Part shown: in pieces, positions 61,116-64,000 of the stretch
Layout: every line of letters starts with the position of its first letter
Position numbering within the stretch: position 1 is the stretch's first letter
The notes under the pieces: generated by a model
What the model saw: only the letters and a program-made list of their open reading frames with translations
What the model was told of the DNA's origin: nothing
Database searches by the model: none
NCBI GenBank assembly: GCA_963777495.1
Contig: CAVZQM010000004.1
Location: forward strand, 242,679-306,678
DNA from: an uncultured Actinomycetes bacterium
GTDB taxonomy: Bacteria > Actinomycetota > UBA4738 > HRBIN12
Direction of reading: 5' to 3'
DNA: 64,000 bases
Program-made: the position numbers and the translations under genes

Positions 61116-61958
61116 CTACTCCTCGTCGTCATCGCCGCCCTGCGCCAGCTCCATGCCACGCTTGCAGGCGGCGTCGATCGCGTTCAGGAACGCGGCGCGC
61201 ACGCCCGCTTCCTCCAGGATGCGGATGGCCGAGATGGTGGTGCCGCCGGGCGACGTCACCATCTCGCGGAGCTCCACGGGATGCTTGCCGGTGTCGCGCA
61301 GCATCTTCGCCGAACCGAGCATGGTCTGGATGATCAGCTCGGTCGCGACGTCGCGCGACAGTCCTAGCAGGATACAGGCCTCGATCATGGCCTCGGCCAG
61401 CAGGAAGAAATAGGCGGGGCCGCTGCCGCTGGTCGCGGTCACGGCGTCCATGTGCACCTCTTTCTGACGGAGGACCTTGCCCACGTAGCCCAGCAACTCC
61501 TCGGCCGTGGCCATGTGCTCGTCGCTGGCGCGCGATCCGGCCGCGATCACGGACATGGCCTCGTCGACCATGACCGGCACGTTCGACATCACCCGGACCA
61601 CGGGCACGTCGTCCGCCAGGTGCTTCTGAACGAACGACGTCCGGATGCCGGCGGCGAAGCTCACGACCAGATCGTCCGGGGTCACGTCGGCCCGGATCTG
61701 CGACAGGAGGACCTCCATGTCCTGCGGCTTGGGCATCAGGACCAGCACGTTCGCCCATCGCGTGGCTTCGGGGTTGTCCAGGGTCGCCGTGACCCCGTAC
61801 TTCCCGGCGAGCTCTTGTGCCCGCTCTTCACGGCGGCAGCTGACCATGATCTCGTCGACCGTCCGGCCGCCGGACCGGATCAGGCCGGAGATGAGCGCCT
61901 CGGCCATCTTGCCGCCGCCGAGGAACGCCACCCGCTTCCCCATCTCGTTGGCCGTCAT
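61116..61958 (-). CDS. proC: pyrroline-5-carboxylate reductase
   Basis: FLGGGKMA, VRVMSNVP, TATSGSGPAY, VTSPGGTT. Confidence 0.96.
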   Translation of the reverse strand: MTANEMGKRVAFLGGGKMAEALISGLIRSGGRTVDEIMVSCRREERAQELAGKYGVTATLDNPEATRWANVLVLMPKPQDMEVLLSQIRADVTPDDLVVSFAAGIRTSFVQKHLADDVPVVRVMSNVPVMVDEAMSVIAAGSRASDEHMATAEELLGYVGKVLRQKEVHMDAVTATSGSGPAYFFLLAEAMIEACILLGLSRDVATELIIQTMLGSAKMLRDTGKHPVELREMVTSPGGTTISAIRILEEAGVRAAFLNAIDAACKRGMELAQGGDDDEE

Positions 61959-61980
61959 CGCTCTCTCGCTTCCGAGGTCG

Positions 61981-62916
61981 TCATCGCGGGCGCTGCACCA
62001 GGTTGGACGCGAAGAACCACATGTTCGCCGGCCGCTCGGCGAGCCGTCGCGTCAGGTAGGGGTACCACTCCGTGCCGTACGGGACGTAGACGCGGACCGG
62101 GTACCCGCGCCGCGCGAGGTCGGCCTGCAGATCCCGGCGCACACCGTACAGCATCTGGAACTCCACCCGTAGCCAGCCGTCCTCGCGTCCATCCACGATG
62201 CGGCGAATGCCCTCGAGCATCGTCGGATCGTGCGTGGCCACATCGATCTGGTGCCCTCGGGCGAACAGGGTCGCGAAGAGCCGCCGGAAGCTCTCGTCGA
62301 CCTCCTCCTTCTCGGTGAACACCACGTCGGACGGCTCGAGGTACGAGCCCTTCACCAGCCGGACGCGGATGCCAACCGGGAGGTCGAAGACATCGGTGGC
62401 CGACCGGCGCAGGTAGGACTGCAGCGCCACGCCGACGCGCGGGTGATCGGAGTGGATCCTCCGCACCACCTCGAGCGTTCGGTCGACGTACCGATGCGCC
62501 TCCATGTCGATCATGACCAGGGTGGCCGCCCGGTCGGCCGCGGTGAGGATCGGCTGGACGATCGAGAGGCACTCCTCGACCGAGCGATCGAGCCCGAGCT
62601 GCGTGAGCTTCAGCGAGATGGCGATGTCCAGGGTCGTGTCCGTCTCGATCGCCTCGAGGGCGGCCAGGTAGGCGCCGCGCGCATCGGCCGCCTGCGCGGG
62701 CGTCTCCACGTTCTCCCCCAGGTGATCGAGCATGGCGGCGATCCGCGCCCGGTCGAGATCGCGGGCCACCCGGATCGCTTGATCCAACGTCTCCCCGGCC
62801 ACGAACCGCGACGCCACGGCGCGCCCCGGCCGGGTCTCGGTCGCGAACCGCCGGAACCACGGGAACCCGGCCAGGCCGAGGATCAGCGGCCGGACCACCG
62901 ACGTCGACAGCGTCAT
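61981..62916 (-). CDS. monofunctional proline dehydrogenase
   Basis: RFVAGET, DHLGE, SLKLTQLG, IDME, RLVKGSY, ATHD, EFQMLYG, YLTRRLAERP. Confidence 0.95.
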   Translation of the reverse strand: MTLSTSVVRPLILGLAGFPWFRRFATETRPGRAVASRFVAGETLDQAIRVARDLDRARIAAMLDHLGENVETPAQAADARGAYLAALEAIETDTTLDIAISLKLTQLGLDRSVEECLSIVQPILTAADRAATLVMIDMEAHRYVDRTLEVVRRIHSDHPRVGVALQSYLRRSATDVFDLPVGIRVRLVKGSYLEPSDVVFTEKEEVDESFRRLFATLFARGHQIDVATHDPTMLEGIRRIVDGREDGWLRVEFQMLYGVRRDLQADLARRGYPVRVYVPYGTEWYPYLTRRLAERPANMWFFASNLVQRPR

Positions 62917-62919
62917 CCG

Positions 62920-63564
62920 TTACTCGTCATGACGATCCTCGATGCCGCCGCGGAGCACCTCCACGAACTCGCGGATCCGCATGGAACGCCGTTCGGGTGT
63001 CCGGTGGATCAGGCCGGGATCGAGGTCCTCTGAGACGAGGGCGTCCTGGAAGCGCTCGGCGAGCCAATCCATCATCGAGGCGAGCATCTCCACGTCGACG
63101 TCGCTGCGGACCTCTTCGCGCCACACGCCGAACTCCACGAACTCGAGCGTGCCGTACGGGTCCTCGCTCCGCATGAATCGGTCGATCGGACGACGGAGCC
63201 CGAACCCGGTGTCGTACCGGCCGATCATCGCCACCCGGTTGGCGACCCAGTCCTGCCGCCCGAACTCCTCGGTCCGCTCGAGCCACCAGTCGAGCGTGGC
63301 CCAGAAGCCGCTCGCGACCACGTCCTCGGGCGCGTCCAGCCAGGCGGGCAAGCTGGACACCGCGCGCTGGTACGCGGCCAGGAAGAGCCCCTCCTTGCTG
63401 GAGAAGTCGAGGAACACCGTGCCTTTCGCCACGTCGACCTCGTTGGCGATGTCTTCGACCCGGGCGCCCCGGTACCCGTGCTCGGCGAAATGCCGCATCG
63501 CGACCTCGACGATCCGCTCGCGACGCGCTACGGCGTCGGCGGCACGCTGACTGCGGGACCCCAT
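62920..63564 (-). CDS. TetR/AcrR family regulator
   Basis: IVEVAMRHFAEHGY...VAKGTVFLDFSSKEGL. Confidence 0.9.
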   Translation of the reverse strand: MGSRSQRAADAVARRERIVEVAMRHFAEHGYRGARVEDIANEVDVAKGTVFLDFSSKEGLFLAAYQRAVSSLPAWLDAPEDVVASGFWATLDWWLERTEEFGRQDWVANRVAMIGRYDTGFGLRRPIDRFMRSEDPYGTLEFVEFGVWREEVRSDVDVEMLASMMDWLAERFQDALVSEDLDPGLIHRTPERRSMRIREFVEVLRGGIEDRHDE

Positions 63565-63581
63565 GGCGCCGCGACAGTAGC

Positions 63582-63962
63582 GGAAATAGAAGAACCCGAG
63601 GGACCTCCGGCTCGCCGAGAACCGAAGCTCTCAGCCACCGTCAGCCCCTCGGGCTCTGATGCTCCAAGCAACCTCCGCGCCCGTCGCGCGGACCTCCGGA
63701 CCCCGCAGGATCGCCTTGCGGCTCTCCAGACGGTCCGCCACCGAGGACTCCACCTTGCGGCTTCGTCCGGCGGCGGGGCCCCGACCCGACTCCCCCTTGC
63801 GGGTTCGTCCGCGATCTGGACCGCCGTTCCGGTCTTGCGACCTTCCCGACCGACTCGCTGTTGCCTTGCGGCCTTCCCGAGTCTGGGACCTCGGTTCCGC
63901 CTTGCGGCTTCCCCGCTGCCCCGTCCGGTTCCTTCGCGTCAGTTGCTTCGACTGCTTGGAGC
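63582..63962 (-). ncRNA. candidate ~380-nt structured non-coding RNA of unrecognised family
   Basis: 10-bp closing helix, six GCAA-capped arms, 3' UUCG-capped long hairpin with U-rich tail, sigma70 promoter directly upstream, no ORF in the track. Confidence 0.8.
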
Positions 63963-63969
63963 GAGGCGA

Positions 63970-63998
63970 AATGTATCGGCCGGTCGGACCGGGGTCAA
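63970..63998 (-). promoter_or_regulatory. sigma70/SigA promoter driving the ncRNA
   Basis: TTGACC-N17-TACATT; +1 predicted at about 63962, the first base of the closing helix. Confidence 0.8.
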
Positions 63999-64000
63999 CC

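Follow-up and report, generated by a model that had tools for sequence, protein, structure and literature searches.

A candidate new family of structured RNA, apparently expanded to six GCAA-loop arms in one lineage of uncultured Actinomycetota

Introduction

What is encoded at positions 63582-63998 of a 64,000-nucleotide (nt) stretch of DNA from an uncultured Actinomycetes bacterium? The stretch, here called the window, is the forward strand of contig CAVZQM010000004.1 from 242,679 to 306,678 (assembly GCA_963777495.1; genome G000, contig C4 in our labels). Window coordinates are those of our locus extract L001 plus 62059. A first-pass annotation read the interval as a single unrecognised RNA on the minus strand with six repeated arms, and proposed that it acts as a protein sponge or a self-assembling scaffold. 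To our knowledge, it is rare for an RNA that nearly all members of a large bacterial lineage carry to have no known role, and we know of no regulatory RNA for this bacterial group. 6S, tmRNA, raiA and OLE were once near-universal RNAs without a known role, and each opened a field. The locus therefore raises two questions, whether an RNA gene exists here and what its product might do.

Results

A structured RNA gene with its own promoter

The locus is very probably the gene of a real stand-alone structured non-coding RNA whose family is not in Rfam. The interval contains two elements, an RNA body (~63962-63660) and a separate long hairpin with a U-rich tract (63657-63582). The single-RNA reading thus holds for the first of these; the 3' part is a terminator-like hairpin of its own. 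The promoter TTGACC-N17-TACATT is present at 63998-63970 on the minus strand as first described, with a predicted +1 at ~63962, and is the sole promoter-like site in 63000-64000 (50 shuffles: mean 0.0). By its sequence it appears to be of the sigma-70 type. A conserved promoter of its own supports a stand-alone, transcribed RNA on the minus strand. The gene is delimited by the following features.

63993..63998, minus strand: -35 box TTGACC; TTGAC lies 33-36 nt from the RNA start in 169/179 loci and is present at all in 170/179
63970..63975, minus strand: -10 box TACATT; spacer 17 nt, 9/12 consensus matches
63660..63962, minus strand: RNA body of ~300 nt; predicted start ~63962, probable 3' end ~63661-63660; fold z -6.06; RNA-library contigs on 63661-63961

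A closing helix, a stalk and six arms

Relatives of the RNA occur in a long form, represented here by an alignment of 32 RNAs of 295-319 nt chosen at <97% identity, and in a short form of ~205 nt. The RNA of the window is of the long form. Its predicted first bases, GCUCCAAGCA, start at 63962, where the 5' strand of closing helix P1 begins 7-8 bases past the -10 box. Their reported pairing about 290 nt downstream is borne out, as part of the 13 bp of P1 (63962-63950 with 63673-63661). Inside P1 follow a GAA/GGA internal loop, an interrupted stalk (P2) and a junction that carries the six arms.

63950..63962, minus strand: P1 5' strand, GCUCCAAGCAGUC; paired in 100% of the 32 long-form sequences, 5/13 pairs covary in 24 short-form sequences
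63661..63673, minus strand: P1 3' strand, GGUUGCUUGGAGC; invariant tandem G-U/U-G pairs beside the GAA/GGA internal loop
63923..63946, minus strand: P2 stalk, 5' strand, an interrupted helix (predicted fold and alignment); helices 2-4 have changes on both sides in 7/12 pairs
63677..63702, minus strand: P2 stalk, 3' strand, partner of 63946-63923 (predicted fold and long-form alignment)
63885..63922, minus strand: arm 1; GCAA loop 63905-63902, GGAA/GGAA internal loop; the sole arm common to the short form
63852..63883, minus strand: arm 2; GCAA loop 63869-63866 (fold and long-form alignment)
63823..63850, minus strand: arm 3; GCAA loop 63838-63835, GGAA/GGAA internal loop; helices 7 and 8 have changes on both sides in 6/7 pairs
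63777..63822, minus strand: arm 4; GCAA loop 63800-63797, GAA/GGA internal loop (fold, alignment and repeat search)
63735..63776, minus strand: arm 5; GCAA loop 63758-63755, GAA/GGA internal loop; helices 10-12 covary
63703..63733, minus strand: arm 6; GCAA loop 63719-63716 (fold and long-form alignment)

All six arms reported earlier are present, the coordinates then given being the low ends of the loops. Every GCAA loop tops a stem of 3-4 bp with a purine-rich internal loop (GGAA/GGAA or GAA/GGA) below it. The loops are spaced 31-42 nt, and the arms are direct repeats of one another; arms 4 and 5 are alike at 92% over 24 nt. Coding repeats were considered and rejected, as the loops are out of frame and relatives differ by 9, 10 and 13 nt.

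The minimum free energy (MFE) of 63962-63660 on the minus strand (303 nt) is -168.6 kcal/mol (z -6.06), which none of 100 shuffles equals; the plus strand of the same region reaches -136.5 kcal/mol (z -3.10). The compensatory stem changes that the first-pass annotation saw among the arms recur among relatives. The RNAalifold consensus of the 32 long-form RNAs has 53 pairs, 23 of them with changes on both sides. Within it, 97.3% of cells are paired and 0/500 shuffles reach any of five measures; sliding the partners by 1-3 columns, as a control, leaves 26-42% paired. All six GNRA arms hold position across the 32 RNAs, and the apical stem of arm 1 covaries (GC 17, AU 9, GU 6). P1 behaves differently, being invariant in these RNAs apart from one U-A/U-G pair; alignment columns 12-336 are GU in 32/32 and columns 13-335 are UG in 32/32.

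Conservation and the short form

A BLAST search with the locus gave a match in 57/61 related genomes, four of the genomes being unpublished. Across most genera the alignment is limited to two parts, promoter plus 5' end and P1 3' strand plus hairpin, and leaves out the middle. A 25-letter pattern taken from the hairpin finds at least 120 stretches in public genomes. Among the 80 pattern matches listed, 76 are metagenome-assembled genomes labelled Actinomycetota, Actinomycetes or Actinobacteria, three are labelled just "bacterium" and one is labelled Archangiaceae (L046), in which the P1 motifs are not present.

Two covariance models were used. R1 covers the P1 3' strand and the hairpin and serves as a marker of the locus; R2 describes the short form, misses expanded forms and was run with strict filters, so that zero R2 matches means not found, not absent. 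R1 matches 143 of 151 genomes drawn from the class, all listed as the same family or the same order, including 99/101 high-quality ones, essentially once per genome. R2 matches 90/151, among them 32/35 in families f2-f8, with none found in the window's genus g1 (0/6) or in genus g21 (0/16). In a phylum-wide sample R2 matches 8/10 genomes of f18, 1/1 of f11 and one unpublished genome of f52; under the same limits it was not found in f9, f14, f16 and f19 (0/10 each) or in f21 (0/9). Promoter, P1 and core motifs recur, together with a hairpin, at the distant loci outside the class that were inspected.

In 138 loci the spacing between hairpin and P1 5' strand falls into classes. The commonest is ~204 nt (59 distinct sequences), and distances of 233-387 nt account for 61 distinct sequences. 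P1, the start of P2 and arm 1 are common to both forms; the interior of the short form is different and almost invariant. The order in the short form is P1, a GGA/GGA loop, P2, a 15/13-nt purine-rich internal loop, P3 and a junction with P4, P5 and P7; P4 has a GUAA loop, and P5 is a 16-bp helix with a conserved 9-nt loop. These helices were set by hand, the automatic RNAalifold fold of the inner part being implausible. Across 24 diverse sequences, other classes included, 94.9% of cells are paired and 22/50 pairs are compensatory, with 0/500 shuffles as good. P7 is weak (76% paired), and a G-run at columns 137-140 of the short-form alignment (A3) can either extend P5, the version used here, or pair with a C-run at 162-165.

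GNRA arms were counted in 139 distinct RNAs, which include a few loci from unpublished genomes. The mean is 0.99 per RNA at ≤210 nt (n=71), 5.11 at 241-300 nt (n=9) and 5.72 at 301-322 nt (n=39). Sequence comparison suggests that the short form is the general state and that expansion is confined to part of family f1, because R2 finds the short form in 32/35 genomes of f2-f8 and in none of those of g1 and g21. On this view the six-arm RNA is a lineage-specific expansion of an ancestral RNA that measured ~205 nt and had about one GNRA arm.

Some genomes of g10 (9/19) and g19 (4/19) also encode, at a second locus, a paralog of the short-form RNA that measures ~186 nt (L222-L227, e.g. G076:C8:1281335-1281521). 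The paralog has a promoter of its own, TTGACC-N17-TAGGTT; its P1 covaries, and a conserved 3' hairpin is lacking. A BLAST search of G000 and four relatives gave no match to it.

Presence in RNA libraries

Contigs from the RNA libraries of three studies lie on the RNA body; contigs give neither strand nor ends. Eighteen RNA runs from soil and groundwater contain 20-30% of sampled words from 63400-64000. Logan contigs of four RNA libraries (X2, X6 and X3, which are three different studies, and X1) were placed on L001:1200-2300. Those at least 88% alike on L001:1602-1902 (window 63661-63961) number 1736 in X2, 797 in X6 and 2269 in X3. We take these contigs as good support for transcription of the RNA body in several communities; high abundance is suggested by the contigs alone.

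A few contigs bear on the ends. One of 159 nt in X1 covers L001:1602-1760 with 0 differences and begins at the last base of P1, and in X2 an adapter is joined at L001:1601. Among the contigs listed, none lies upstream of L001:1902, and the tetR side is reached in X3 only. Summed contig depth in the lower-hairpin bin is far below that of the RNA body, although depths cannot rank gene parts. Together these are a weak hint, not a finding, of a mature RNA with the predicted +1 and P1 as its two ends.

Some X2 and X6 contigs skip 149-152 nt within L001:1679-1832 (window 63738-63891), which is the span of arms 2 to 5. From these skips, relatives with fewer arms are also present in X2 and X6. The skips, and back-joints seen at 1853/1650, are not evidence for a circular RNA; they are compatible with relatives that have fewer arms, or with repetition among the arms.

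The 3' hairpin

Downstream of P1 stand the two elements that would end the transcript.

63591..63657, minus strand: long conserved terminator-like hairpin, capped by UUCG and interrupted by a tandem G-A internal loop; 67 nt, 33 bp; three unpaired bases after P1
63582..63594, minus strand: U-rich tract following the hairpin; relatives mostly have UUCUUUU

The sequence directly 3' of the 67-nt hairpin is UUCUUCUAUUU. The hairpin is the most conserved stretch across the class, with 80-98% identity between genera, above that of the RNA body. A terminator scan of the locus did not flag 63657-63591. Hairpin and U tract (63657-63582) nonetheless most likely end transcription, and the hairpin is perhaps trimmed afterwards, as happens to the terminators of other stable RNAs, so that ~300 nt with P1 at the 3' end would remain. 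As a separate observation, plain termination seems inadequate to explain the strong sequence conservation of this hairpin, which bears a tandem G-A loop of its own.

Two other readings of this region were rejected. P1 or the hairpin might be operators for the TetR protein, but G-U pairs and compensatory changes indicate RNA, and loci without TetR keep the hairpin. A tRNA-like ACCA 3' end is not conserved, the letters past P1 varying (ACCA, ACCU, AUCA, AACA).

Gene neighbourhood and upstream motifs

The upstream neighbourhood is constant. Upstream flanks of ≥1000 nt were available for 116 loci; the gene before the RNA on the same strand encodes a GNAT acetyltransferase in 51 of them and MshA in 65. 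Downstream flanks of ≥700 nt were available for 129 loci of the class, in which the next gene is TetR (110), proline dehydrogenase (16) or another one (3). In f18 the upstream MshA-GNAT pair is kept and the downstream gene is different. The conserved promoter of its own, the variable next gene and the constant upstream neighbour support an independent gene rather than a leader. Two further features flank the RNA gene.

62920..63564, minus strand: TetR-family gene, starting 18 nt past the U-rich tract
L001:1952-1960, 1972-1980 and 1997-2003: conserved upstream DNA motifs, just outside the window and upstream of the -35 box

The motif TTGTCAC is found at ~-99 in 151/179 loci and is present at all in 158. 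CTGACC(T/A)GC is found at ~-56 in 94/179 and at ~-76 in 10/179 loci, the motif nearest the RNA start being scored, and is present at all in 104. From its sequence it looks like a transcription-factor site common to both RNA genes, that of the paralog included. L001 carries it at both places, 20 nt apart. Beside the -35 box, the paralog promoter carries its reverse complement (GCGCTGGTCAG).

Behind the TetR gene, the minus strand of 61116-62916 encodes a monofunctional proline dehydrogenase (Thermus type) and directly after it the pyrroline-5-carboxylate reductase ProC. Catabolic and biosynthetic proline genes thus stand in one same-strand row.

Known RNA families

An Rfam 15 scan gave no family, tRNA included, at gathering score anywhere in the 64-kb window or L001, and no match to the locus at E≤1. 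At E≤10 the RNA alone matched miRNA precursors, a flavivirus stem-loop and pieces of lncRNA at 9-19 bits, far below the cut-offs, and these were set aside as hairpin noise. The first-pass annotation had seen no signature of RNase P, SRP RNA or tmRNA, in agreement with the finding that each genome's copy of these lies over cut-off at another locus (5/5 genomes). A ydaO/c-di-AMP or GEMM-like core was likewise rejected for want of a model match, as was a T-box, because P1 closes the domain and the model does not match.

The raiA motif RNA (RF03072) was rejected as well, with no model match even at E≤10 and the true raiA at another locus in 5/5 genomes. In G000 a bona fide raiA motif RNA was observed at G000:C5:170359-170589 (146 bits, over cut-off), and likewise in 4/4 relatives (141-148 bits over the five genomes).

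The literature searched gave no description of this RNA; its novelty may depend on the supplementary tables of motif-discovery papers and of PMC9130861, the latter with Ms1 candidates by genus.

Discussion

A possible protein-binding RNA with a multiplied module

Judged from sequence, the locus very probably represents a new RNA family. The explanation that we favour as a whole is an RNA of this new family that acts in trans, binds protein and has multiplied one module; we give it a probability of about 0.45. Transcription from the sigma-70-type promoter would start at ~63962, and the RNA would close through P1 and P2 and open into the six-arm junction. It may act in trans, as a stable protein-binding RNA. 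Action in trans is suggested by three observations: conservation is lowest in the part that would be a sensor, families differ in the gene that lies downstream, and the paralog has no such hairpin. The recognition site may consist of a symmetric internal loop rich in purines (GGAA/GGAA, GAA/GGA), topped by a short G-C stem and a GNRA loop. The short form has this purine-loop unit where P1 meets P2, in its central loop and in arm 1; the arms of the RNA studied here have it six times. Its copy number would have grown from ~1 to ~6 in the window's genus, raising the valency of the RNA for titration or scaffolding of a partner. We propose such a multivalent mechanism, as a model, only tentatively.

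Several observations weigh against this explanation. No partner protein is known or suggested by the neighbouring genes. CsrA (PF02599), the partner implied by the CsrB-like logic proposed at first, was found in 0/5 genomes, four of them 95-100% complete and G000 78%, and that part of the proposal is not supported. The same five genomes gave no Ro60 (TROVE, PF05731), and a likeness to bacterial Y RNAs is not borne out. The short form has about one arm of the kind described, and therefore multivalency is not the basic function of the family. Its invariant core (the P5 loop and the CCCCAAAGCC...GAAAGG stretch) is missing from the long form, and therefore the two forms may differ in function, which is the main weakness of the explanation. 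R2, the short-form model, has no match in G000. The TetR gene starts 18 nt past the U tract, which leaves little room for a promoter of its own. An X3 contig (422 nt, 48 differences) spans tetR, the hairpin and the 3' part of the RNA (L001:1222-1642); because of this bridge, read-through or DNA exists. Finally, contigs do not show the level of a transcript any more than its strand or ends, and RNA libraries can hold DNA.

A bolder view is that this is a new housekeeping RNA class of uncultured soil Actinomycetota, with a binding unit, a GNRA hairpin above a tandem G-A internal loop, copied from 1 to at least 6 times in one bacterial family, serving either as a stand-in for 6S/Ms1 that holds RNA polymerase or ribosome parts in dormancy or as a self-assembling particle. 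We regard it as rather unlikely. If true, the RNA would be among the more abundant non-ribosomal RNAs in soil.

Other explanations

By analogy, the RNA could be a global regulator of the 6S/Ms1 type, an abundant stationary-phase RNA that keeps RNA polymerase bound in reserve and stands in for 6S or Ms1 in a lineage with no recognisable form of either. We consider this unlikely. It would fit the size (~200-300 nt), the strong conserved promoter, the single copy and the many contigs in soil RNA libraries. 6S (RF00013) was found in 0/5 genomes of the family and not over cut-off in five RNA-bearing genomes of other families, and 6C RNA in 0/5. The silence of the 6S model is weak evidence, however, as it detects just 5/14 control genomes, and genome G165 has a sub-threshold 6S-like match (36 bits) at another locus besides this RNA. 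The RNA itself is not matched by the 6S model at E≤1, nor, when searched alone, at E≤10.

The fold speaks less for such a regulator. 6S has a closing stem, a large central bubble and a terminal stem. The short form does have a ~23-bp closing stem, made of P1 and P2, followed by the 15/13-nt purine-rich internal loop, yet its distal part is branched, unlike the terminal stem of 6S. The long form is a 7-way junction without a large bubble, the corresponding region being paired with small loops, and its distal part is again a multi-arm junction. Ms1 is described (PMC4191392) as one long hairpin that opens into a central bubble and has two short hairpins close to its ends, whereas covariation here supports a multi-arm fold. 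According to PMC9130861 and PMC6582537, Ms1 adjoins a HAD-IB hydrolase gene near the 6C RNA gene in other Actinobacteria. In G000 the HAD-IB gene is at G000:C4:471810-472412, ~165 kb from the RNA on the same contig, and the synteny of Ms1 is not kept. Around it Rfam matches no RNA family apart from tRNA-Sec, which speaks in favour of this reading. The tRNA-Sec gene (L215:3436-3526, G000:C4, 74.8 bits) lies ~1 kb from the HAD-IB gene, a position kept in all five genomes examined.

It is improbable that the RNA is a ribozyme, or the RNA subunit of an enzyme or ribonucleoprotein, with the arms as peripheral stabilisers. Near-universal single-copy occurrence in the class, and the invariant unpaired stretches and invariant G-U pairs of the short form, are what such an RNA would be expected to show. 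Variable peripheral arms round a conserved P1 and P2 also recall RNase P and raiA as the latter is described in PMC12968392. The conserved core of the short form is lost in the long form, however, a loss that a catalytic core would not tolerate, and the paralog, which keeps the core, was not found in the window's genus by BLAST of G000 and four relatives.

Equally improbable is an architectural role, of which the self-assembling scaffold of the first-pass annotation is one version. GNRA loops would dock into helical or tandem G-A receptors of neighbouring arms or of other copies and so produce a compact fold or a homo-oligomer, as in ROOL, GOLLD or OLE. G-C-rich stems could serve as GYAA receptors. 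The six-arm RNA has six GNRA loops, each accompanied by a conserved purine-rich internal loop, and the 139 distinct RNAs of the family together have GCAA 232, GCGA 79, GUAA 65 and GAAA 30 times. RNA-only assemblies of ornate bacterial RNAs are described in 10.1101/2024.12.08.627333. Against this, ROOL and GOLLD are far larger than an RNA of 300 nt, GNRA loops are few in the short form, loop-receptor contacts have no covariation support, and no 11-nt receptor was noticed, although none was searched for.

A cis-acting leader, with a sensor domain that acts on the terminator hairpin and so sets how far transcription continues into tetR, proline dehydrogenase and proC, is very improbable: a domain closed by P1 and followed by hairpin and U tract has a riboswitch layout, the next gene starts 4-195 nt after the hairpin and is TetR or proline dehydrogenase in 126/129 class loci, and one X3 contig bridges the RNA and tetR, but conservation is lowest in the would-be sensor, which the two forms do not share at all, and highest in P1 and the terminator, the reverse of riboswitches and attenuators, inspection revealed no alternative pairing between P1 and the hairpin, other families such as f18 have other downstream genes, and some genomes have a paralog elsewhere without such a hairpin.

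Significance

Nearly every genome of an entire uncultured class, common in soil and groundwater, has the RNA in single copy. Short forms, six-arm forms and, in some genera, a paralog make up a natural series in which the role of the arms can be probed. A short, concrete RNA with a covariation-backed fold that is seen in RNA libraries from many studies is also tractable.

Comparison with known RNAs

ROOL, GOLLD and OLE resemble this RNA in being orphan, highly structured, tetraloop-rich bacterial RNAs. They are much larger, their models do not match, and self-assembly is known for them.

Stability, a conserved promoter and a closing stem are features that 6S and Ms1 have in common with this RNA. 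6S binds the RNA polymerase holoenzyme and templates product RNA; Ms1 binds the polymerase core. Ms1 is reported to be highly abundant in stationary phase (PMC4191392), and its G-A pairs are considered possible protein sites (PMC6582537). Theirs is a hairpin with a central bubble, in contrast to the multi-arm junction found here, and neither a model match nor HAD-IB or 6C synteny connects them with this locus.

The CsrB/RsmZ sponges have a repeated stem-loop module that varies in number by lineage and a purine-rich, GGA-containing motif. The former has its counterpart here in arms that are direct repeats and average 0.99 in the short form vs 5.72 at 301-322 nt. The sponges are strings of hairpins with GGA in the hairpin loops, and the first-pass annotation had spoken of GGA-rich loops; here the arms stand in a junction closed by P1, the hairpin loops are GCAA or other GNRA tetraloops, and GGA and GGAA occur in the internal loops instead.

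By analogy, the nearest known RNA in behaviour appears to be raiA. Its pseudoknotted core is not recognised in the six-arm RNA and its model does not match. PMC12968392 describes raiA as very abundant and without a known function, with a long closing P1 that is strikingly conserved and peripheral stems that vary in number between subtypes. Both raiA and the short form measure ~200 nt, occupy one locus per genome and occur in Actinomycetota.

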